56,778 nucleotides of DNA, from the IMG/VR virus record IMGVR_UViG_3300027976_000010, one strand, 5' to 3'. A model generated the notes under the pieces. It was not told where the DNA came from. It worked only from the letters and a program-made list of their open reading frames with translations, and did no database searches. Positions 19,396 to 36,395 of this stretch are shown piece by piece. This DNA is from an uncultured virus (IMG/VR IMGVR_UViG_3300027976_000010) (lineage: Duplodnaviria; Heunggongvirae; Uroviricota; Caudoviricetes). Within the stretch, counting starts at the first letter, position 1. Each line of letters opens with the position of its first letter. The position numbers and the translations under genes are program-made.

Positions 19396-22300
19396 TCATG
19401 ATTTTTGCGCAACCATGCTGACGATAGACGGCAATATATACCGTGGGAATTTACCCGATACCAAAGAGTCTTTCTCCTCTCGGCCTATCCCGCTTCGGCT
19501 GTCATTCATTGAATCAAATTGGTCGGCCATAAGGTAGTTATTGGTCTTTTCCATTCTCCGTTTTAGGTTCATATGGAACCAATTACGCCTTCGTTGTAGT
19601 TTGAGAAGATATGCCAGAACATGCCCAATTTCGGTTACGATGGCGGAAGTCATATCCACCAGTGGTGTATCGGGGTAACTTTCCCTGATTTCCGGCGTGC
19701 TAAATGGCTCCCCGGGAATACCCATACGGGTTCTGTCTAGGCCCCCCGTGCGGCCCCTATCCAAACCTCCCGTATGGACTTTATCCAAATATTCAAGTCT
19801 TCCTAAAAGGGTGTCTAGGGACGAGTCCGCCACCACCCACCCCTTGAATAGCATTTCATTACTCGCATCCTCGGCACCCCCGAATGGCATTGAAGCTGGG
19901 CCACGATGATAATTCTGTATCGCTATTTCGGCATGGCGCTTCGTAACTTCTTCTCCGTGGCGGCGGAGAGGGTCATTTGAAATCCATTTACTTCCAGGCA
20001 ATCTCCCCATCATTGACCCAGATGGGCCGTCATCAAACGACAGCTGTTCTTGGGTCAAATCTTGAGTCTGCGCCGGCGGGCTTTGTGACGGCCCCTGATC
20101 GGGCGTGGCTTGTGGGTTTGGAGAATTTCTCGCACGCAAACTGCCCCGTTGCGTACTCGGCCCCCTATCCATGCGTCTGGCCGCACTTAGCGCATCCTCG
20201 CGTCTTCCGTATGCCTCTCCGGTCGGCGAATTATTATTATGCGTATCAATTATGGACCACGAACCATCTGGATTCGGCCTAATGTCGTAACGTTGCTCGA
20301 TATAGGCCATTGACCCGCTAGGACCGCCGGGGGGCTGATATGACGGGGCGTTATACAGATCTTCAAGGAAAGTTCCGAGCGTGTCTTTTAATTTAGAATC
20401 GGCCGGCTCGCCGGTTTCGGGCGATACGAAAAACCCGCCATACGGCCCACCGCGTGATTCTATGTAATCCCGGTCTCTCGGATTGCCGTTCTCATCAAAT
20501 GAAATTCCGTTATTTATTTCTACCGCGCTATCGAGCCAGCTGTCGTAGCCATCGCCGAGCTCTTGTTTTTTCAAATCAAGCATGTTTTCAAATTTCTTAC
20601 GCCTATCAATCAGGATCATTTTTTCTGCTCGCTCAAATGGGGACATCCCGGCCATCTGCTTGATTTCGGCCAAATCGCGACCCCGCGACGCATAACCAAC
20701 AACATTCTCTGGCGTTATATCTAGGTCGCCGGCGATAGAAAGGACATCATAGGTAAATCCATCAAAAACCTCCGGGAGGCCGTCGACTATGATTGTTTCA
20801 CTGGCCCTCATGTCTAGTAGGTGGTGAAGATCCATCAGGTCATCCATGGATGGGTTTTCCCAGTCCCTATTTTCCATGTTGGTGAATCTTGCGCCTATTT
20901 GCAAAGCGACAGATTCCCAATCATCTGGACCGTACACATTTTGAAGCCGTCTATCGATTAGGCGGCTACCGCTTAATGGTATTTTGGGTTGACCTCCACT
21001 TGGATGCAGGGACATGCTCCCGCTTGGGTCATCCCCGTTAATATTATTTCTAATTGCTACGGCTTCTGGACTGGCCAAGAATCTAGATTGAATTTCTGAC
21101 CCGATATTTTCAATGTCCCGCAAAAACCTTGATCTTGTTGCGTTATCCTTGGGATGAGGCCTCTCGGATCCAAAGAGTTGTTCAATTGATTCATTAAATA
21201 ACTCTCGCAGTTCGTCCGTTGTTTTGCTTGACAGGTCCTCGCCGCGTCGCAATGCCATGCTCCCGCTGGGGCTATTACTGCTGTATCTGAGATCGAGCTC
21301 GCCTAATACGTAGTCGATATTCCTAACTGTGTCAAAATCCGATGAGCTTAAATCAAGGGTCATTTCTAGGTCGTCAAATAATATATCCCCACGATCGATA
21401 TCATCCTGAATATCGCCGACCCTGTCAAGGGCGGAAATTTCACGTGCGCGTTCCCTGTCGACCACATTGAGTCGCCTGCGTATATTATGCTCACTCGTTC
21501 CATGGCGACGAGCAAGTTGCCTTATTGCGTCCGCATCGGAAGTTGACGACATTAAATCATTCAGCTCATTGTATATTTGCGCATTATAGGAATCATCCAT
21601 TGCGCGATCTGACGAATTAGTTGGCCTTGCGTAACGCCCCATTGAACCCGACGGATTTGCCATTTCAAAGACGCTTATATCCACGTTGCCGGTAAGCAAA
21701 TACTCCCCATTTGGGGCTCTCTCAATTTCTATGCCGAATTCATCGACGTAAGATTTGCCATCCGTGCGCATAACTCGATCGATAGCCGCGAATCTATCCA
21801 GGAGGTCATTGGTCTGCGCCGCGTCAATGGGGGCATCCGAATGGAGTCTGGATATAATCGTTTGCAATTCTTGGTCTTGTTCTTCGCGGGGCATTGCTGC
21901 GTATCTCGCATCATGCTTATTCGGTGTCCAGTATGACGGAGGAAAATAATTATTGACTCGTGTCGGAGTGAGGTCCATGGAGCCGCTTATTGAATTGTCG
22001 GTGGAATCGGTAGATTTTTTGTGCGATATCCGCGCTTGTTCCCTCTGTCTGTTATGGTCGGCGACCATAACCCCCAGCGGAATATTGACAAAATTCCGCC
22101 TACCCGGTGTTCGCTCTGCGCCGGTGAGTATTGATCCGATCGCCCTACCCGACGCCACCGGATCATTGGGTCTATCCATATTTATCTCAGAGACATCAAA
22201 TTTTTTCCGTATATTGTCGTCGCTATCAGTAGCGTGGAGAAACCACAGATCCGAGAACTCCGATAATGAGGCGCCCGCCTCGACATCAAGAAACGAAACG

Positions 22301-25300
22301 GTATACGGTTTGTTGCCGTACATAAACGAGACTCTATTATTAGAACGAGCCGCATCCAATAACTGACCAATTTTTTCCTTATTATTAACCGAGCCACTAA
22401 TGGCAATAGTTTTTCCAATCACCCCGCGTGTTCCGACTCTTATCATTTCCCGTTCGCGGGGCGCAGTATTTCCGGAGCGCTCCTTTTTGGGCGCTTCTCT
22501 CTCTTCACGAGGCGCTCTCTCTTCGCGAGGCGCCCTTTCCCTGGATCGTCTGTCGTTTTCATTATCCACATTGTCGCCCCAGGCGCCGGGGTCTGCCTCA
22601 TCTTCCCGTATTCGCCGTGCTTCTTCGCCTGAATCGGCTGGCTTATCGCGCGGGCGACGTTCGCCGCTTCCGCCACCGGTCTGCCGTTCTCCACTAAATC
22701 GCGTATTCGGCGGATCAGTTTTAGGCTTACTTGCGTTCTTATCTAAATTTTTATCGTAGCCGACTATCCGATCTACTCGGTAATTTTTTTCGTCTATGCC
22801 GTCTCCGCCAATGACATAGTGGACTCCGGTATGCGGATTTTTCCCCATCCGCGCCGAACGCAGAACTCTCGTCGTCGTTGGTGTGCCGTCGTTTTTATTG
22901 TAGCCAAATTGCAACGGTTTTCCGGTTTTAATATGGGCGCTCACGGCATCAACAATGCTCTCGGTGGTATTATTTCTGCCTATCGTAATATGGGTATCGC
23001 TTTCATCCCATCCGTCCGGTCGCGTCATGTCCATCCCGTAAAGTCCAAGCTCCCGATATTCAGCTTCAACATCTTCGGCATCTATATCTTCACCGGACGC
23101 CCTGCGCAATCTTGCTTCCTCTACCCACGGCTTACTACTTATCATCACGGCTTCTTCGTTTGGAACCCGACCGCGCTGGAAGTTAACACGCTCTACCAGT
23201 TCATCGTATTCATCACCGACCTCATTTGCCGGCCAATGTAATCCTCCGCCTCTTTCCCAGCCCTGCTGATCTGCGCCGCGTGGATGATTCCATTTACGAA
23301 GAACGCCGTTTTCGTCCGCGACAACATACCGGTTTGACTGGCGACTGGTATCACCGATATTTACCGTTGCATAACGCGTTATTTCGCCGGTGTCCATATC
23401 TACATGACTACGCGTCATATCGGAAAGATCAACGGAATCCACTTTTGCCAGTTTCTCCGCCCATGTGTCGTCCTCGGGGGCTTCTGGCGACACGTCCGAT
23501 GGCCCTGGTAGGTTTTCCGGTCCGTCAACCCTGAGGATTGGGATATCTGTTGCGCCCTGCCGACTTGGCGCAACACCGCTGTCATCAAAACCTTTAAGTA
23601 GGCTTCGTAAATAGGCCCACTGTTTTTCTGATAATGTCCCACTCATGCTGTATCGGTTCGCGATGCTTGTGACAACGGTAAGTTTTTTGCCCTGATCCGA
23701 TTTTGGATCAATGCCCATGTCCACGGCTGGGTTAAAAACACCGAGCCTGTCGGCTTTGGCTATTAGGTCATCGGCGTCTGGGGCAATAATATCCGTCTGT
23801 GGATCTTTTGTGATGGTCTTTGAGGCACTGTCTTTACCTCCATAACGGAATTGCCATGTTGATTGCTTCCACCATTGATGAGTTAATCCGCGCCCGGCCG
23901 TAGCCAGCCTTTTTCCAGTACCGGTCTGGAGAAGTGCGTCCAATTTTTCCTTATCGGACATCGCCACTTCAATGACATTGGGGACGACGTTTTCAACCTT
24001 CCCGGCGTTGTGGAACTGAATACCGAATTCGCTTTCGCTGGAATTAAATAAAACAAGATTCCGGCCGCTATCCCGACCTGTAGTAAGAGACGGCGTAATC
24101 GAGAAATTAATTTCCTTTCCATTACCGTCGACATAATGACCGGAGATTATGCCGTCCTTAAATTTTATTGGTCCTGTTTTTGATGCGATTTCCAGAATAT
24201 CAGCTTCTGCCGACGAAACAAATGCGTGATGATCCTGGTGGCGTGTCCAGTAAGTGTTCTGACCGTCATCAAATTCTGGACCGTTTGGCATACGCTCGCC
24301 AATTAATTCATGAATTGGTTTTTGTCCAATTTCCGGATACGACGCGCGCCGAGCGCGAATAAACGGTTTATCCGGATTCGTTCTATCAATTTGTATGTCG
24401 TAGTTCTCGTATTCTCCGTCTTTATTAAGAGTTGCCACCGAGTCGCCGGCCCTGTGTTTTTTGGTGCCGAATTTCATTGATCCGCTTGGACTGCTGTTGA
24501 AATTATCATCCTCTAATATTCGTGCGAATTCATCAAAGGAAGATGTTGCGGATGCATAATTAAACTGTTTGTCAAATTCCGTTGGCCCGATTGTGCGGGT
24601 TGATTCCGTTCCGTCCGACAGTGCTTGAACAATATAAGGTCCATTTTCGTCGGCTCCGAATGTCGACCGGATCACCGTTGGCTGATCATCCGCCAACCCA
24701 GATAGTTTCCTAAGCTTAGAAATAGCCTTTTGTTCTCGTTGCCGTACTTCCTCCCGCGATAAACCGGTTTCGTCGGCTGTGTCGACCAGGGATGCGCCGT
24801 TGAGGCGTAATTTTAATATTCTTCTATCGGATTCCGTTACAGAATCCCGGTGTCTATTTACAAGGGAGCGCATCTCGGCGCGTCGCGGGCTCTCGGATGC
24901 TGAGAGATTTATTGCATGGCCACGAATTCGCGCAATAGTTTCATTCTTGGAAAGATCGTTATCTTTTGCAAGTTTATCAATCGAGTCATCGCCGTATTTG
25001 TCGTAAAGGCGTCTATTTAATTTTTCGTCTGGCCCGCTCCGCTCATTGTCATTATCTGATGACATCCGCAAGATTGACGCCATCGACCCAGTTGGGGCAT
25101 CGGTACCAAAATTCCCCGATACAACATCGGGTACCGCATCCGTTAAATCCTGATTGGCGTTATCGTCTTTTAAATCGCTGACGTCCTCCGCCATTGCCAG
25201 CGCGTCAATTGCTAATTGCATTCCGACTGGCAGATCTATATCGTCATTTAATTCTAAAAAATTTCGCAATTTTGATAAGGCTAGTTGTTCTGATCTACGA

Positions 25301-27672
25301 ACGGAATATCTGTCAGTCCCAAGTCTCTGTGCTGCTTCGTCGAGTGTCTCCCCATCAAGTCTGCGCTTCAACAAATCGATAGAATCGCTAGAAAGCGGGA
25401 TGGACGGATTGTCCAGCGCTCTGCGCGACAATCTATTTGGATGAGTTTCGCCGAGATTCCGCAGCGAGCTTATGTGGCGTACTTCCAACTGTCTAATTTC
25501 TTCTCTGGTTTTTCCAAATTCGTGTGATGCTTGATCGAGAGACATCCCACCGTGCTGGCGAGCTAGGTATATATTTCTCGCCAATTCCGCTTGGGCCTGC
25601 CTAGAGCCGCCAATGTTTCCGCGCGCGGAAACAGCGTCCGGCAGTTTTTCCCCAGTGAATGAGCTTGCATCGTTTCCTCTACTCCGCTCAATTGCGTACC
25701 GCTGCTGGATCAGCTGCTGTAGTCTTCGTCTGTCCCGGATCAATTCCGGAGCTGAACGGTTCGTATTTTCAAAGGTGTTAGTTAGCGAGGCGGTAGCTAA
25801 TCGTCGGTTAATGGCATCCATCTCGGTGTCTATGCTCTCAAGAGAAGAGCTCATGCTCCCGCTCGGATTAGCCGTGCTTGCCCGGCCGACAGGGACTAGT
25901 GGCCGTACTGGCACTGGTGGTGCATCTGGGACCCTTGGTCGCTCTGGAATCGGAGGCGTTACTGGTCTTGGTGGCGGCGTCGGCGCTGGTTCCGGTTTTG
26001 GCACGGGGCGCGGCGGGGTCTTCCATGGTTCGCGTTCTGGTGGAACGGTTATCGGTGGTGGACGCCCTGGTTCCTTTTGAGGTTCTTTTTCTGGAACTTT
26101 TTCTGGAACTTTTTCGGGTTCTTCGTCTGGCTTCCTACGCGGTATCGCTGGCGCAACTTCAGGAATTTCTTCGGGGACCTCGCGCGGCTGTGGCACCGAT
26201 GGCATCATTTCGGCCCCGCGACGATTTCGGTTCAAATTGGGGACATTTGCATCGCTCCCCGGCGTTGGATCGATAACCCCGCGACCCCTATTAATTGTCG
26301 GGATTCCCTCTAAGACAAATTCATCATTGTCGGCGTTGCGGGCCGTCATCGGGTTCATGTTTGTACGCCGTCTATTGAGACTTGGTCGTAGCCCCTTTGC
26401 CTCAATGCCGCTGAGTACGGTCGTGATTGCGGTTATGGCATCTGGTTGCAGGGTGTCGTAGTTTTGAACAACAATCCCCTCGGTCAAAATTTTTATTGAG
26501 AAGCCGTGATATTCGCTAACCGTTCTAACTGTGTCAAAAATATCCGCCGATTCCACCGGATCGGTTGGACTAATAATTACATGGGTGCCAGGGTTCGCTA
26601 ATTTGAACTCGGACAGGGTCATCGCCGATTTTGAATCCCCGCAAGAGCCGCCGTGGATAGCGCACTCATCACAGCAACTATCCTTTTTATCGGCCGAGAA
26701 TGTCAGCACATCCAGAATATTTTGGCCGATTGCCGGTAGCATCGCCAATGTGATGCCGGGCGCGATTGTTTCCCCATTTTCCCTGCTACCCAGCGAAGAA
26801 TGAATAGGAATATAAATTGTTTCTGGTCGCACCTGTTGCGCTGTTCCAAACATGAATTCATCACCGTCGTAATGGTATGTGGCCCGCATCGTTTCCGTAG
26901 ATTGTCCGGCTCCCATTTCAAAGATGGCAATATCGTGGTCGGCACTAACCAGGCGAACGGGGCCGCCAAAGTGCGCAGACAGCGCCCGCGTTAAATCCGC
27001 CGCTCTTCCAACCACGGTATTAATAGGGTTGGTAACCGCTTCGTAAATCGCAGTTACTTGGTTTTTCATCTCAGCACCATTGGGGCCGGCGAGTGCTGAA
27101 TTATTAGCAGGATCCGCGGCGGGCTCATCAGACTTGATGGATATCGTCCCTGTCAACTGATTCGCCCCATGGAGAACAGGGCTGACTTCGTACAGCTCTA
27201 CTTCTTTTAATAGGTTGGCCTGCTGGGTGCTATCAAATACCGCATCTAACGTTTTGTAGCCGATTGACCACTCTTGGTCAAACCCAAAAAACCCGACGTT
27301 AGCAAATGCCTCGCGTCCCTTTTCTGCTTTTAGATTAAATTGGACCTTTGCATAAAGTCCGCCAATGCCGGCCTTTTTCATTTTTGTCGGTAGCCGCGGA
27401 TCGTTTGGGCCGACCTCGTATATTTCAAGGACCTTCCCAATGGGCTCGTTCCAATTGTGGCCCCAAACAACCCGTGGCTTTCTTCTTTTTAGCGAGTTCG
27501 TAAAACAGCCCGGAAGGCATACATCCCCGACGGAATCCTTATTGCCAATGCCCGCCACGAAGCATTCAATGATCCCAAGCGCTTCATCTATATTGAATTG
27601 ACCGGTTAACGACTTGTACTCGTAATCGCGAATGGGGGAGAGCGTGTCAGTCATGGGGTCCTTAATAGACAA
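19396..27672 (-). CDS. HK97-family prohead protease fused to an approximately 2150-aa array of cargo domains (putative polyprotein), 2758 aa
   Basis: The N-terminal ~180 aa carry Peptidase_S78-type motifs (DSVGD, VWGHNWNEPIG, GLYAK, EWSIGY, LYEVSPVLHGAN), and the gene lies directly downstream of the portal. After that come the ARNADND module, a Pro-rich linker, nine [P/I][S/T]GSM motifs, three sigma-region-4-like HTHs and two WYL-like domains. Confidence 0.92.
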   Translation of the reverse strand: MSIKDPMTDTLSPIRDYEYKSLTGQFNIDEALGIIECFVAGIGNKDSVGDVCLPGCFTNSLKRRKPRVVWGHNWNEPIGKVLEIYEVGPNDPRLPTKMKKAGIGGLYAKVQFNLKAEKGREAFANVGFFGFDQEWSIGYKTLDAVFDSTQQANLLKEVELYEVSPVLHGANQLTGTISIKSDEPAADPANNSALAGPNGAEMKNQVTAIYEAVTNPINTVVGRAADLTRALSAHFGGPVRLVSADHDIAIFEMGAGQSTETMRATYHYDGDEFMFGTAQQVRPETIYIPIHSSLGSRENGETIAPGITLAMLPAIGQNILDVLTFSADKKDSCCDECAIHGGSCGDSKSAMTLSEFKLANPGTHVIISPTDPVESADIFDTVRTVSEYHGFSIKILTEGIVVQNYDTLQPDAITAITTVLSGIEAKGLRPSLNRRRTNMNPMTARNADNDEFVLEGIPTINRGRGVIDPTPGSDANVPNLNRNRRGAEMMPSVPQPREVPEEIPEVAPAIPRRKPDEEPEKVPEKVPEKEPQKEPGRPPPITVPPEREPWKTPPRPVPKPEPAPTPPPRPVTPPIPERPRVPDAPPVPVRPLVPVGRASTANPSGSMSSSLESIDTEMDAINRRLATASLTNTFENTNRSAPELIRDRRRLQQLIQQRYAIERSRGNDASSFTGEKLPDAVSARGNIGGSRQAQAELARNIYLARQHGGMSLDQASHEFGKTREEIRQLEVRHISSLRNLGETHPNRLSRRALDNPSIPLSSDSIDLLKRRLDGETLDEAAQRLGTDRYSVRRSEQLALSKLRNFLELNDDIDLPVGMQLAIDALAMAEDVSDLKDDNANQDLTDAVPDVVSGNFGTDAPTGSMASILRMSSDNDNERSGPDEKLNRRLYDKYGDDSIDKLAKDNDLSKNETIARIRGHAINLSASESPRRAEMRSLVNRHRDSVTESDRRILKLRLNGASLVDTADETGLSREEVRQREQKAISKLRKLSGLADDQPTVIRSTFGADENGPYIVQALSDGTESTRTIGPTEFDKQFNYASATSSFDEFARILEDDNFNSSPSGSMKFGTKKHRAGDSVATLNKDGEYENYDIQIDRTNPDKPFIRARRASYPEIGQKPIHELIGERMPNGPEFDDGQNTYWTRHQDHHAFVSSAEADILEIASKTGPIKFKDGIISGHYVDGNGKEINFSITPSLTTGRDSGRNLVLFNSSESEFGIQFHNAGKVENVVPNVIEVAMSDKEKLDALLQTGTGKRLATAGRGLTHQWWKQSTWQFRYGGKDSASKTITKDPQTDIIAPDADDLIAKADRLGVFNPAVDMGIDPKSDQGKKLTVVTSIANRYSMSGTLSEKQWAYLRSLLKGFDDSGVAPSRQGATDIPILRVDGPENLPGPSDVSPEAPEDDTWAEKLAKVDSVDLSDMTRSHVDMDTGEITRYATVNIGDTSRQSNRYVVADENGVLRKWNHPRGADQQGWERGGGLHWPANEVGDEYDELVERVNFQRGRVPNEEAVMISSKPWVEEARLRRASGEDIDAEDVEAEYRELGLYGMDMTRPDGWDESDTHITIGRNNTTESIVDAVSAHIKTGKPLQFGYNKNDGTPTTTRVLRSARMGKNPHTGVHYVIGGDGIDEKNYRVDRIVGYDKNLDKNASKPKTDPPNTRFSGERQTGGGSGERRPRDKPADSGEEARRIREDEADPGAWGDNVDNENDRRSRERAPREERAPREEREAPKKERSGNTAPREREMIRVGTRGVIGKTIAISGSVNNKEKIGQLLDAARSNNRVSFMYGNKPYTVSFLDVEAGASLSEFSDLWFLHATDSDDNIRKKFDVSEINMDRPNDPVASGRAIGSILTGAERTPGRRNFVNIPLGVMVADHNRQREQARISHKKSTDSTDNSISGSMDLTPTRVNNYFPPSYWTPNKHDARYAAMPREEQDQELQTIISRLHSDAPIDAAQTNDLLDRFAAIDRVMRTDGKSYVDEFGIEIERAPNGEYLLTGNVDISVFEMANPSGSMGRYARPTNSSDRAMDDSYNAQIYNELNDLMSSTSDADAIRQLARRHGTSEHNIRRRLNVVDRERAREISALDRVGDIQDDIDRGDILFDDLEMTLDLSSSDFDTVRNIDYVLGELDLRYSSNSPSGSMALRRGEDLSSKTTDELRELFNESIEQLFGSERPHPKDNATRSRFLRDIENIGSEIQSRFLASPEAVAIRNNINGDDPSGSMSLHPSGGQPKIPLSGSRLIDRRLQNVYGPDDWESVALQIGARFTNMENRDWENPSMDDLMDLHHLLDMRASETIIVDGLPEVFDGFTYDVLSIAGDLDITPENVVGYASRGRDLAEIKQMAGMSPFERAEKMILIDRRKKFENMLDLKKQELGDGYDSWLDSAVEINNGISFDENGNPRDRDYIESRGGPYGGFFVSPETGEPADSKLKDTLGTFLEDLYNAPSYQPPGGPSGSMAYIEQRYDIRPNPDGSWSIIDTHNNNSPTGEAYGRREDALSAARRMDRGPSTQRGSLRARNSPNPQATPDQGPSQSPPAQTQDLTQEQLSFDDGPSGSMMGRLPGSKWISNDPLRRHGEEVTKRHAEIAIQNYHRGPASMPFGGAEDASNEMLFKGWVVADSSLDTLLGRLEYLDKVHTGGLDRGRTGGLDRTRMGIPGEPFSTPEIRESYPDTPLVDMTSAIVTEIGHVLAYLLKLQRRRNWFHMNLKRRMEKTNNYLMADQFDSMNDSRSGIGREEKDSLVSGKFPRYILPSIVSMVAQKS
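26267..26360. repeat. Dispersed direct repeat, copy 2 (partner at 17205-17298)
   Basis: 46-bp exact core 26267-26312; encodes MNPxTARNADNDxFVLEGIPTINRGRGVIDP in both genes. Confidence 0.95.
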
Positions 27673-29957: not shown

Positions 29958-29966
29958 TGTTTACGC

Positions 29967-30155
29967 CTACTCCATCCCAAGCAAAAAGCCGACTACGCCA
30001 CAAGCAACACCAAGGGAGATAAATCCTGCGGGGACGTTAATTAAAAATGCACCTATACCACCTAACAGTATAAAGCAAAATATCAGAATATTGGCAACCA
30101 TTGCACGATTCAGTATCTTTGCCTGTGCTGTTCTAACCCAATTGGGGATATTCAT
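29967..30155 (-). CDS. Small membrane protein preceding the portal
   Basis: 62 aa with two hydrophobic segments; this position is common upstream of HK97-type portals. Confidence 0.75.
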   Translation of the reverse strand: MNIPNWVRTAQAKILNRAMVANILIFCFILLGGIGAFLINVPAGFISLGVACGVVGFLLGME

Positions 30156-30227
30156 TATCCTCTTTCACTTCCGCGACCTTTTGGCACGGTAGTCTAAATC
30201 TATCACTAAAGATGGACGCGGAGACAA

Positions 30228-32558
30228 ATGACTGATTGGGAGAAAGTTTACGAGTACCTACAGCCGCGCCCGTCGCTGTTTTGCCTAGAGGAACCGTCGC
30301 TCACGCAGAAGGTTTTTCTTCGGACCTATGCGCTTGAAGCCCTATTTGGTGGAGCAGCTGGTGGCGGGAAAAGTTCCGCACTGCTCATGAGTGCTCTACA
30401 GTACGTGGACGTGCCGAATTATTCGGCCATTTTGTTCCGGCGGACATTCTCGGACCTATCTCTCCCCGGCGCACTTATGGACAGATTCAAATTCTGGGTC
30501 GCCGAAAATGACCAAATACACTGGAACAACAATAGCTTTATCGCCACCTTCCCATCGGGGGCGCGAATAACCTTTGGTTACCTTAATAACAAGGACGACT
30601 TTCAGCGGTATAAGGGCCCGTGCATTAAGGGAACAGAGGTTTTAACTACTTCCGGATGGAGGAAAATAGAAGATATTCAGGTTGGCGAATTGGTCGCTTC
30701 AATGAATCCGGAAACACGAGAATGGGATTATCAATCGGTAACCCATACGTGGGTCTATGACCACGACGGACTAATCTATAGTCCGAGAGAGGGCTCGGAT
30801 GTTTCGTTCGCCGTGACCGCAGACCACACATGGTGGGTTTCAACGCAGAGGGTAAAGAAACTTCGCAAATACAGAACGGATGAATTGCCAATAGCGGCAA
30901 GATTCCCACAGGCGGGTCATTTTATTGGCGGTATTGACACGGGGGCATCCGTGTTCCCGAGTTCGGCGCGAGGCAGACAGCATAGTTCTGACATCATTTT
31001 CGGCGCAGAGAATTGGGCAACTTTCCTTGGTTGGCATATTGCGGAGGGGTGTACTAATAAAGGAACCATACAAATTTCGCTCCACGACGGACACAGCAGG
31101 ACATACAAGGATGTCCTGGTGAGTCTGCTTGAACATTCCGGTGCTTATGTCAGGGATAGCCCCAGGAATCTTGTATTCACAAATACAAAACTCGCCGACT
31201 GGCTGGATGAACATACCGGCAAGGGCGCTTATCACAAACGGATTCCCGACGAGGTCTTTACCTGGAAAACAAAATACGCTCGGCTTCTTTTGCAATCCTT
31301 GGTTGAAGGGGACGGAACATGGCGCACCGAAAAAAGTGGTCACTATGTAACTGTTTCGCGCGAGTTGGCCGATGGCGTGATGAGGCTTGCACAGCATTGT
31401 GGCTTTAGGGCCACCCTTAATGAGCGCCAGGACCACACCACTACGCCCGATGGAAAAGAACACGATGTTTTGGCGTTCCATGTGTTTTTACTTGAAACAG
31501 CCGACCAAGATAGAATGATTTCTTTTGGCGATGGACAACCAATAGTTGCCAAGCATTACGTCGGCACCGTTCACTGCTTAACTGTTCCCCCTCATCACAC
31601 CTTTTTAACTAGACACAATGGACGCGTTGTCTGGACTGGAAACTCGGAGTTTCAATTCATTGGGATGGACGAAGTAACGGAAATCCGGGAATCGGATTAC
31701 AGATATCTATTTTCCCGTTTGCGTCGACCGGCTAGCGGCGAACTGTCAAAGGTCCCATTGAGGATGCGCGCTGCATCAAACCCTGCGCCGAATTGGGTCA
31801 GGCAGCGATTTATCGTTGAGGGCGACACTACAAATCGGATATTTGTACCATCGCTTTTGACGGATAACCCCGGCATTGACGTTGAGTCGTATCGCATGGC
31901 CCTAGCGGCCCTAGATCCAATTGAGCGACGCCGCCTAGAAGAGGGCGACTGGTGGGCAACAACATTGGGGACCCTATTTGACCGAGAATCCTTTGTTATT
32001 ATTGACCCCTCAGAGGTCCCAGCTGCTGGGATGGGTGCTAGGGCTTGTAGGTTTTGGGATTTAGCCGCCACCGAACCCCATCCCGGGAACACGGATCCAG
32101 ACTGGACCGTTGGCACGCTCGGCCTATTTGAATCCGGCATTTTTTACATATTGGATATTAAGCGAGTTAGAGTAAAGGGCGAAAAGGTTGAACGTCTGGT
32201 CGCCCAGACGGCCGCCGAAGATGGACCGAGTGTGGCGGTGCGTATGGAGCAGGAGCCCGGATCGTCTGGGAAGGCCCTTATCGACCAATATGCCAGATAT
32301 ATTCTTCCAGGGCATGATTTTTTAGGAATTCGCTCGACTGGGGATAAATTAACCCGAGCCAGGCCATTTGCCGCGGCTGCCGCCAACGGCAATGTGAGGC
32401 TTGTCCGTGGCCCGTGGCTTAGCGATTGGCTTGACGAGGCGTCGTCCTTTCCTGAGGCCTGTAGCCATGATGACCAGGTTGACTCCGCCGTTGGAGCTTT
32501 TACACATTTAGCTGGTTTGGGGTTGCCTTTTAGGCGGCCAACGGTTATCATCATCTGA
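30228..32558 (+). CDS. terL: Terminase large subunit, intein-containing
   Basis: Walker A FGGAAGGGKS. Walker B region YKG|SEFQFIGMDE is restored after intein removal. Coupling motif ASNP; nuclease motifs FWDLAA, EQEPGSSGK, HDDQVDS. Confidence 0.95.
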   Translation: MTDWEKVYEYLQPRPSLFCLEEPSLTQKVFLRTYALEALFGGAAGGGKSSALLMSALQYVDVPNYSAILFRRTFSDLSLPGALMDRFKFWVAENDQIHWNNNSFIATFPSGARITFGYLNNKDDFQRYKGPCIKGTEVLTTSGWRKIEDIQVGELVASMNPETREWDYQSVTHTWVYDHDGLIYSPREGSDVSFAVTADHTWWVSTQRVKKLRKYRTDELPIAARFPQAGHFIGGIDTGASVFPSSARGRQHSSDIIFGAENWATFLGWHIAEGCTNKGTIQISLHDGHSRTYKDVLVSLLEHSGAYVRDSPRNLVFTNTKLADWLDEHTGKGAYHKRIPDEVFTWKTKYARLLLQSLVEGDGTWRTEKSGHYVTVSRELADGVMRLAQHCGFRATLNERQDHTTTPDGKEHDVLAFHVFLLETADQDRMISFGDGQPIVAKHYVGTVHCLTVPPHHTFLTRHNGRVVWTGNSEFQFIGMDEVTEIRESDYRYLFSRLRRPASGELSKVPLRMRAASNPAPNWVRQRFIVEGDTTNRIFVPSLLTDNPGIDVESYRMALAALDPIERRRLEEGDWWATTLGTLFDRESFVIIDPSEVPAAGMGARACRFWDLAATEPHPGNTDPDWTVGTLGLFESGIFYILDIKRVRVKGEKVERLVAQTAAEDGPSVAVRMEQEPGSSGKALIDQYARYILPGHDFLGIRSTGDKLTRARPFAAAAANGNVRLVRGPWLSDWLDEASSFPEACSHDDQVDSAVGAFTHLAGLGLPFRRPTVIII
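30618..31643 (+). mobile_element. Intein (342 aa, class-3 type) with a LAGLIDADG homing endonuclease
   Basis: Block A PCIKGTEVLTTSGW, block B VTADHTWW, LAGLIDADG-like FLGWHIAEG and LLQSLVEGDG, block F VHCLTV, block G VVWTGN followed by Ser+1. Confidence 0.92.
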
Positions 32559-34638: not shown

Positions 34639-35172
34639 ATGAATACGGTTAAACGCGAAATGTCGGACGATGCGTTTGCATATCTTGTTGCGCAGGATGT
34701 CAAAAACAAAACCAGTGGCGAGCAAAAAGCCCTGCTGCGGTTACATGATAATTGTGACCGGTGGGTATTGTGCCTAAATGAATTGCTGAATAACATCAAT
34801 GACCAAATTGACGACATCCAATCTGACTACGACGCAGACACGGACCTTTATAGTTCAATGAGCGTGGACGGCGTTTTGTTGTTGGCCGAGACGCACATAT
34901 ATTACAAGGCCAAGTTGCGAAAGATTCAAAGTTTTAGGCGTCATATTGATAGAAGTATCACCGAAGCTACAAATCTATTAGAAGTTTATATTCAGACGAA
35001 TGATCAGGCCGACGCTCATGCGTTAACGGAAATTTGTCGTGCGGCCATTATCGAGCATCAAAAATGTCTTGATAAACATGATGTTGAACCGACGCAATGG
35101 GATACCGCCCTGTGGGCGTCGCTGGACGGAGAGTGGTTATTTGATGAGATACTAGATGGGGAGGTCAATTGA
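34639..35172 (+). CDS. Hypothetical helical protein
   Basis: In-frame ATG at 34639 with GGGGGA upstream, inside the 34522..35172 ORF. Confidence 0.75.
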   Translation: MNTVKREMSDDAFAYLVAQDVKNKTSGEQKALLRLHDNCDRWVLCLNELLNNINDQIDDIQSDYDADTDLYSSMSVDGVLLLAETHIYYKAKLRKIQSFRRHIDRSITEATNLLEVYIQTNDQADAHALTEICRAAIIEHQKCLDKHDVEPTQWDTALWASLDGEWLFDEILDGEVN

Positions 35173-35471
35173 AACAGAGATCTGAAAAAACTCAGAAAAA
35201 ATATATAGAGCGCCGGAAATTGGTGGTGGAAATGCTCGCCGCTATCCCATGGTGCCAGGCGTGCCCGATTTTTGCACAGCATGACGAAAAGAAGATGTAC
35301 AGGCGCAATCCGTCTACTGATCTGCACGAGATAAAGCGCCGGTCGCAGGGCGGATCGATTTTGGATAAGGAAAATATAATGTGCGTATGTAGACCGTGTC
35401 ATTCCAGAATTGGGGACCAACCCCAATTAGCTTTTGACTTGGGTCTAGCTAAACACGGCTGGGAAGAATAA
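35169..35471 (+). CDS. Small HNH endonuclease-like protein
   Basis: CQAC...DLHEIKRRSQGGS...ENIMCVCRPCH; TTG start overlapping the upstream stop. Confidence 0.85.
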   Translation: MKQRSEKTQKKYIERRKLVVEMLAAIPWCQACPIFAQHDEKKMYRRNPSTDLHEIKRRSQGGSILDKENIMCVCRPCHSRIGDQPQLAFDLGLAKHGWEE

Positions 35472-35557
35472 TAGGCGCAGATAAACAAGTATACATCTCA
35501 TATTTTTTAAAATGAATAACTTTGTTTATCGGTTCATATTTTTGGGGGTGTAAACTA

Positions 35558-35623
35558 GAGAGCCTTAGGACCGTTATAGGCGCAAAGACCGGGTGGGGGA
35601 GCTCACTCGGTTTTTGCGTCCTA
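35558..35623 (+). ncRNA. Candidate small RNA whose 5' segment is antisense to the 23S rRNA helix-69 region, followed by a long terminator-like hairpin
   Basis: TAAACT (-10-like) at 35551-35556. CCTTAGGACCGTTATAG at 35563-35579 is the reverse complement of conserved 23S CUAUAACGGUCCUAAGG. Then a stem accgggtggg-ggag-ctcactcggt followed by a T-tract. Confidence 0.5.
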
Positions 35624-35674
35624 TTTATTTCGTGAATATTTAGATTATTATTTACGGCATCGTCTATTTTCAAA

Positions 35675-35683
35675 TGCTACGCT
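35675..35683 (+). promoter_or_regulatory. Candidate extended -10 promoter (TGcTACGCT)
   Basis: TG-n-TAnnnT after an AT-rich stretch in the 35472-35846 intergenic region. Confidence 0.35.
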
Positions 35684-35787
35684 TTACCTATCTAGCCAAA
35701 TTGTATCCGAACCGAAACGAGGGGCAGGTGGTCAAAGATCTGGTAGGCAAACTACGGCAAATCGCATAAGTAAATTTATTTACATGC

Positions 35788-35823
35788 AACCCGCCGGGCC
35801 GGCTAGATGTTCGGCGGGTTTTT
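35788..35823 (+). terminator. Rho-independent terminator-like hairpin
   Basis: aacccgccg ... cggcgggtt inverted repeat followed by ttt. Confidence 0.65.
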
Positions 35824-35846
35824 GCCAATGCGGCTAGTATCCCATT

Positions 35847-36395
35847 ATGCGAAATATAAGGTTGCTGGGCCTAGATTTATCATTACGATCCACGGGTCAT
35901 TCGCACGCCGGGGTTACCGGAGTTATAACGCCCAGCACGAATGGCGTTGAGCGCCTAGACGAAGTCTCCGAATCAATTATTAAAATTATTTCCCTAAACG
36001 CTATTGACGTTGCGCTGATTGAGGGCTATTCTTTTGCTTCACGAAGCGGTCAGGCTTTTTCAATTGGTGAGCTCGGCGGCGTTGTGAGATTAAGCCTATT
36101 TAGAGCCGGGATACCATTTGTAGAAATACCGCCAACCTGCCGTGCGAAATTTGCCACAGGACGGGGGAACGCTTCAAAGACCGAAGTGGTTTCATCGGTA
36201 TCGGCGCGAACGGGAATTATTTGGAGTGGCAAAGGTGGAGATGACCGATGCGATGCCTGGATCCTGGAAGAAATGGCACAAACGCACTTAGGTGTAAATA
36301 ATTACAGCTGGCCCAGCATCAACAAAGAGGGACTTAAGGCTGTAGATTGGAAGCAATTAGACGTGGTTTACGAAAGGATACGCAGTGAGGAATAG
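35847..36395 (+). CDS. ruvC: RuvC-like Holliday junction resolvase
   Basis: LLGLDLSLRSTG, ALIEG, ELGGVVRL, ATGRGNASK, DDRCDA. Confidence 0.9.
   Translation: MRNIRLLGLDLSLRSTGHSHAGVTGVITPSTNGVERLDEVSESIIKIISLNAIDVALIEGYSFASRSGQAFSIGELGGVVRLSLFRAGIPFVEIPPTCRAKFATGRGNASKTEVVSSVSARTGIIWSGKGGDDRCDAWILEEMAQTHLGVNNYSWPSINKEGLKAVDWKQLDVVYERIRSEE

Follow-up and report, generated by a model that had tools for sequence, protein, structure and literature searches.

Comparative sequence evidence indicates that the largest intergenic gap in a 56,778-nt stretch of DNA from an uncultured lake phage (hereafter the window) holds a member of a real, uncatalogued family of phage small RNAs, the near-invariant 5' end of which is antisense to helix 69 (H69) of canonical 23S rRNA. 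Among the functions considered, we rank pairing with the 23S H69–H70 junction (positions 1914–1930) first, because complementarity reaches into the 23S flanks in independent lineages and we came upon no other target; we would put this reading at slightly under an even chance. For the wider family an rRNA target is well supported by sequence comparison, but it is put in question for the actinophage group to which the window's RNA probably belongs, since the actinomycete version of H69 differs from the one that the seed would match.

Anatomy and conservation of the small-RNA gene

The window belongs to a viral contig of 74 kb in IMG/VR (completeness ~50% by estimate) and encodes portal, terminase, sheath and baseplate proteins. 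Its large terminase (30228–32558, + strand; 776 aa) carries a LAGLIDADG_3 match at residues 351–405, between the N- and C-terminal terminase domains, and the insertion looks like an intein with a homing endonuclease. On the opposite strand (19396–27672, -), one 2758-aa open frame combines a prohead protease (residues 16–193) with sigma-70 region 4 (residues 944–989); frames near it, of 1257–1748 aa, had no family match. The small-RNA element lies between a gene for a small HNH endonuclease upstream (35169–35471, +; 100 aa, HNH only; Pfam HNH 21.6 bits, phrog_15522 1.5e-15) and an apparently leaderless gene for a RuvC-like resolvase downstream (35847–36395, +; phrog_159 1.4e-27), in a recombination module that also encodes a Rad52-like protein and a PD-(D/E)XK exonuclease. 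The 375-nt gap between the two (35472–35846) is the largest between open reading frames (ORFs) taken as genes; the second largest measures 270 nt (29958–30227), and an apparent gap past 55961 holds two small + strand ORFs.

Read along the + strand, the element begins with TAAACT (35551–35556), a -10-like box of the TAnnnT type read from the sequence, which a 6-nt spacer (agagag) separates from the 17-nt seed CCTTAGGACCGTTATAG (35563–35579), where the transcript is predicted to start. The seed runs into a terminator-type hairpin of 19 pairs (10 G-C, 4 G-U) with a 4-nt loop (35579–35620), directly followed by the U-rich tail CTATTTATTT (35621–35630), the likely 3' end of the RNA. A preliminary description made from the sequence alone had proposed a ~60-nt small-RNA unit in the largest non-coding gap of the window, with a 17-mer 6 nt past TAAACT and then a hairpin and T-tract; all of these parts were found again at the same positions, and the comparative data below argue for the unit itself. 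The exact seed is present in a single copy, and neither strand of the window holds a second copy with two or fewer mismatches (0 of 100 shuffles matched). In the window's own predicted fold the last 4 nt of the seed join the stem. The four G-U pairs make the hairpin favor the + strand, and a covariance model scores the element at 75.5 bits on this strand versus 19.5 bits on the other, which renders unlikely the earlier suggestion of a decoy encoded on the opposite strand. Rfam 15 at gathering score and ARAGORN both returned nothing in the window; with E up to 10, Rfam gave only two chance-level matches in the gap.

The exact 17-mer occurs in ~120 IMG/VR stretches, and just one of the 118 listed is an rRNA gene (L097, a true 23S). 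We scored the listed stretches for a TAnnnT box 6–7 nt ahead of the 17-mer and for a hairpin (10 pairs or more, beginning no further than 4 nt from the 17-mer). Both features occur together in 94 of the 118, in the promoter-hairpin context that the preliminary description had anticipated in virus contigs; 15 show a hairpin alone and 9 lack both. By comparison, a universal 23S 17-mer used as control was found in three IMG/VR stretches, all rRNA, making the seed ~40 times commoner. The element also recurs in synteny, the point on which the preliminary description had staked its proposal: among 80 loci found through their RuvC-like proteins (56–67% identical to that of the window, save one 100% copy), the covariance model identified a single copy at 51, in every case on the same strand as RuvC, with an exact seed in 38 and a variant in 13. 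At four of the 29 remaining loci the DNA upstream is too short for a decision; most of the others have HNH abutting RuvC, so that the small-RNA unit behaves as an inserted cassette.

Each part of the gene is conserved in its own manner. Among 59 distinct upstream sequences, 47 have a TAnnnT box ending 6–7 nt ahead of the 17-mer; other registers give counts of 2–12. Across 43 distinct sequences, 15 of the 17 seed columns are invariant, the consensus fold by RNAalifold has no pairs in the seed, and the shared 14-pair stem is 96% paired (81% in shuffles; 33–57% in slid registers), with compensatory changes at 12 of its 14 pairs, a result matched by 0 of 500 shuffles. At least four U residues fall within 10 nt past the stem in 77 of 109 hairpin-bearing loci. 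The commonest hairpin arm was found in 41 IMG/VR stretches, 39 of which are this RNA; the seed is present in all 39 (36 exact, three with T as first base), and no other seed was seen on the same scaffold among these 39 small-RNA matches. Scanning metagenomes brought in 78 further stretches, and 28 hairpin variants among them were new. Together these features make a strong case for the gene model.

One set of relatives departs from this plan. In class B (L028, L036, L037, L039 and relatives), a separate lineage that encodes WhiB (two WhiB genes on one contig), the RNA has a 14-nt 5' extension that includes the mini-hairpin GCGAAAGC, and a downstream UAGCGGUCU is predicted to sequester two-thirds of the seed, on its 3' side, so that just a short toehold stays free.

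In cultured phages, blastn of a 2-kb region and of the 91-nt element found nothing real, the 17-mer itself being below the reach of BLAST. A match to the seed region in Klebsiella phage TTM-TASP117, a 19-nt partial match beside an assembly gap, was rejected as chance. In Flavobacterium phage immuto, the source of the closest cultured relative of the ribonucleotide reductase (RNR) encoded next to the L025 element, there is no copy within two mismatches. A scan of bacterial genomes yielded 24 matches: seven in 23S genes, where the base after the 17-mer is unusual, and others that mostly look like chance matches within coding sequence; since none was of the window's type, the scan gave no host. 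In two Myxococcus species (L214, 2497–2560, and L222), GCTA plus the 17-mer, 21 nt antisense to 23S in all, is followed by a hairpin in a chromosomal intergenic region with an ATP-grasp gene on one side and a YceI gene on the other, and the delta-proteobacterial MAGs L216 and L219 have 21- and 23-nt versions. Judging from their sequences, these copies may be bacterial counterparts of the phage RNA in culturable organisms.

An alignment of 26 relatives revealed a second conserved non-coding element of ~133 nt in the same gap (35691–35823, +), with its own -10-like box (35678–35683) and terminator (35790–35823). A 5' stretch of the element, UCUAGCC, pairs with the loop of its terminator and does so with covariation, CUAGC/GCUAG being replaced by CCAGC/GCUGG in 7 of the 26 relatives. 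A purine block (35719–35733) is complementary to the 3' tail of 16S rRNA: when the conserved block alone was folded with 16S, duplex energies were -17 to -25 kcal/mol, values reached in 0–7 of 200 shuffle trials for 10 of 11 variants, and the signal was weak with E. coli 16S as the partner. No start codon follows the purine block. The second element is missing from short-gap relatives and is possibly a partner RNA of the small RNA.

Complementarity to helix 69 of 23S rRNA

The reverse complement of the seed is identical to positions 1914–1930 of the annotated E. coli 23S gene (2904 nt), bearing out to the nucleotide a match that the preliminary description had placed at about these positions. 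Throughout this stretch the Rfam bacterial LSU consensus is in upper case, except at U1923, which is marked variable. Other exact matches between the window and 23S are 13-mers at most, i.e., background, and the longest to 16S is a 14-mer. The predicted duplex of the seed with canonical 23S has an energy of -28.1 kcal/mol, compared with -17.3 +/- 1.9 for shuffled seeds and -6.4 for H69 alone.

Other lineages stretch the complementarity beyond the 17-mer, to 28 nt in L062 (with one G-U pair), 25 in L002, 23 in L069, 22 in L027 and L066, and 20 in L025 and L015. These lineages occupy other gene contexts, following an RNR or a non-specific endonuclease gene, beside lysozyme, or in tRNA islands. 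The anti-23S stretch of the L025 lineage forms, in the predicted fold, a hairpin complementary to H69, a shape that would permit loop-loop contact. Substitutions within the seed are also largely compatible with 23S pairing: among the RuvC relatives we found A8G at six loci, first-base C to T at two, C to A at four, and C to A with A16G at one, and three of the four substitution types (first-base C to U, A8G and A16G) keep the pairing via G-U, whereas first-base C to A does not. The C9U seed of L457, a separate lineage, is likewise G-U compatible. As transitions are common anyway, these variants are only modest evidence for selection on pairing.

The model that we favor predicts transcription, the exact RNA ends, an rRNA target in vivo and an effect on ribosomes as follows. 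An RNA of ~60–68 nt would be transcribed from the 35551–35630 region under its own TAnnnT promoter, starting at or next to C35563 and ending at the hairpin and U-rich tail. Its first 13–17 nt, single-stranded, would serve as a fixed base-pairing seed, and the variable, covarying hairpin would only stabilize and terminate the RNA. The putative target at 1914–1930 extends from the 3' half of the loop of H69 through its 3' strand and the linker, and pairing there would unfold H69 or block its formation, most plausibly on new or free large-subunit RNA, with disturbed 50S maturation or subunit joining during infection as the expected consequence. The m3-pseudouridine at position 1915 cannot form a Watson-Crick pair and would thus favor binding to immature rRNA. 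According to PMC5449589, the H69 pseudouridines are made by RluD. Blocking this site can be harmful, as a synthetic PNA against H69 is described in a review as blocking translation and E. coli growth (Kulik 2017, per PMC10777018). Full-text searching of the literature found no description of a phage RNA antisense to 23S.

Probable hosts and candidate targets

The phages most closely related to that of the window probably infect Actinomycetota. Each of the five complete relatives (140–172 kb) encodes two or three WhiB proteins, which marks the family as actinophage-like; among 14 control genomes Corynebacterium glutamicum alone gave WhiB matches. For the portal and RuvC proteins, the closest cultured relatives likewise come from actinophages (29–45% identity). 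A protein atlas comparison was informative about the host at the level of phylum only, and WhiB was not found in the window's own contig, ~50% complete as it is. TAGTAT (35835–35840) is followed by 6 nt and then the ATG of the RuvC-like gene, a box and spacing that recur at the start codon in relatives and match the 6-nt geometry of the small-RNA box; this promoter grammar and the apparently leaderless gene are also in keeping with actinobacteria.

This host assignment conflicts with a perfect rRNA match. In our sample, which was confined to the class Actinomycetes, CTATAACCATCCTAAGG was present in 7 of 7 species from five orders and in all 11 gene copies of five records. These 23S genes read CCAUC where the seed requires CGGUC, giving two central mismatches at seed positions 9 and 10, both invariant in the phage family. 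The preliminary description had named the CCAUCC-for-CGGUCC difference correctly, yet its expectation that the seed would covary with the 23S of the predicted host was not supported, as an actinophage-like family carries a non-actinomycete seed. In the probable actinobacterial hosts the proposed duplex would therefore consist of 8 + 7 bp around a 2x2 mismatch, unless the hosts have canonical H69. Against the whole rRNA operon of Arthrobacter, the seed-H69 duplex reached -19.3 kcal/mol, no better than shuffled seeds (-18.3 +/- 1.7), and a site in the 16S-23S spacer gave -20.0 kcal/mol, while an actinomycete-type seed on Arthrobacter H69 would give -27.8 kcal/mol. Such a seed was found in two IMG/VR stretches, neither small-RNA-like, and a search for any non-C at seed position 9 returned ~150 stretches, mostly chance or coding, with one convincing small RNA, L457 (C9U). 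Two viral contigs, L350 and L351, share a 24-nt motif (1501–1524) that holds the actinomycete-type 17-mer; an extended -10 box, TGCTATACT, lies just ahead on the other strand, so that a transcript there would start 23S-like, in the sense orientation.

The mismatch with actinomycete H69 implies that the hosts have canonical H69, that an imperfect 8 + 7 bp duplex is enough, or that the RNA has another target. We think it unlikely, but worth serious consideration, that this is a genuine base-pairing small RNA whose true target in these actinophages is another host RNA with the canonical or a near-copy sequence, its likeness to canonical 23S reflecting ancestry from, or convergence with, phages of other hosts. 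The two mismatched but invariant seed positions, an rRNA-operon pairing no stronger than that of shuffled seeds, and the absence of actinomycete-type seeds from small-RNA layouts in our scans all fit this explanation. However, the search for such a target yielded no candidate: the five complete relatives contain no sense copy of the 17-mer with three or fewer mismatches, and within two mismatches five actinomycete replicons (6.8 Mb) contain sense copies of the seed target only in their 23S genes. Several lineages, moreover, lengthen their complementarity specifically into the 23S flanks. Somewhat less probable in our judgment is that the hosts are actinobacterial lineages that keep canonical H69, in which case the seed would be a perfect match and would report the host. 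Such hosts would account for a strictly canonical seed and for A8G, which fits a natural H69 variant with C at 1923 (U1923 being variable in the Rfam consensus), and the sample covered only five orders of one class, Actinomycetes; against them stand the variant H69 common to all seven sampled actinomycetes and the absence of canonical H69 from the actinobacterial genomes examined. The 23S helix-69 FISH probe used for freshwater Actinobacteria, HGC69a, targets the variant 5' strand and speaks against canonical-H69 hosts as well.

Explanations that dispense with a functional RNA fare far worse. The canonical 23S stretch is a classic homing-endonuclease target, an HNH gene adjoins the element, and the interval between HNH and RuvC either has or lacks the cassette, as with an insertion. 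These points could suggest a site acting at the DNA level, such as a target for a homing endonuclease or for att integration, a site of packaging or protein binding, or an HNH guide. This is very improbable given a strand-specific hairpin with four G-U pairs and compensatory changes, a -10 box at a fixed distance, direct terminal repeats in three complete relatives and no integrase family among the 35 ORFs scanned. In other lineages the element adjoins RNR, lysozyme and tRNA genes with no HNH, and conversely some loci have HNH but no element; this independence makes an HNH guide unlikely. Both the att or homing target and the HNH guide that the preliminary description had listed as alternatives thus lose ground. 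A guide of the IscB/Cas9 type was rejected as well, as there is no large RuvC-HNH effector: the neighbor is a 100-aa HNH only, and the downstream RuvC-like gene falls in another family, that of Holliday-junction resolvases. It is scarcely credible that the element is just the terminator of the HNH operon with a fortuitous 17-mer. By chance, a few percent of stretches of this size should share a 17-mer with some rRNA (~0.03, estimated with one rRNA set), but the 17-mer stays invariant while the hairpin and flanking proteins diverge and is ~40-fold enriched in IMG/VR over the control, so the conservation data contradict a chance match.

Relation to known systems and significance

The predicted RNA has the layout of small RNAs of the RybB and OmrA/B type, with a putative promoter of its own, a 5' single-stranded seed, a variable terminator hairpin and a U-rich tail in ~60 nt, but it is encoded by a phage, and its 17-nt seed matches rRNA rather than mRNA leaders, the target here being predicted. 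The probable hosts are not known to have Hfq. Antisense RNAs that present a loop, such as CopA/CopT and RNA I/RNA II, resemble the L025 hairpin complement of H69, whereas the window's RNA shows a linear 5' seed and would target rRNA rather than a replication or mRNA leader. Archaeal and eukaryotic box C/D and H/ACA guides are likewise small RNAs that pair over 10–20 nt with conserved rRNA (see also PMC6009581); the phage RNA differs in lacking such boxes, in having no partner protein genes nearby and in its bacterial-virus origin. The closest parallel in target is the PNA of Kulik et al. 2017, also antisense to H69 and reported in PMC10777018 to invade the hairpin, which indicates that the site is vulnerable to antisense. 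The PNA is a man-made 13-mer, while the phage RNA is natural and would cover the H69 loop, its 3' strand and the linker to H70. Finally, phage proteins that bind host ribosomes on infection, as described in PMC10914614, share the aim at the host translation machinery, but those factors are proteins and the effector proposed here is an RNA.

The family is plentiful in lake viromes, and its anatomy is simple and testable. We also make a broader but tentative proposal, which we consider more probably wrong than right: many tailed phages of several host phyla may encode RNAs that pair with functional rRNA centers, with H69 as the target of one type. If true, the neighboring RNA in this phage may target the 16S 3' tail, and such RNAs would amount to a previously undescribed, RNA-based takeover or disabling of ribosomes. 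The canonical seed in actinophages would then mean either that the hosts possess a helix 69 unlike the one expected or that the duplex is imperfect by design; the comparison of this seed with actinomycete helix 69 is sharp enough to decide between rRNA and another target. Phages are known to act on ribosomes by means of proteins. Were a conserved phage RNA to target rRNA, it would add a new way of taking over the host and would set an example from nature for antisense antibacterials directed at helix 69.
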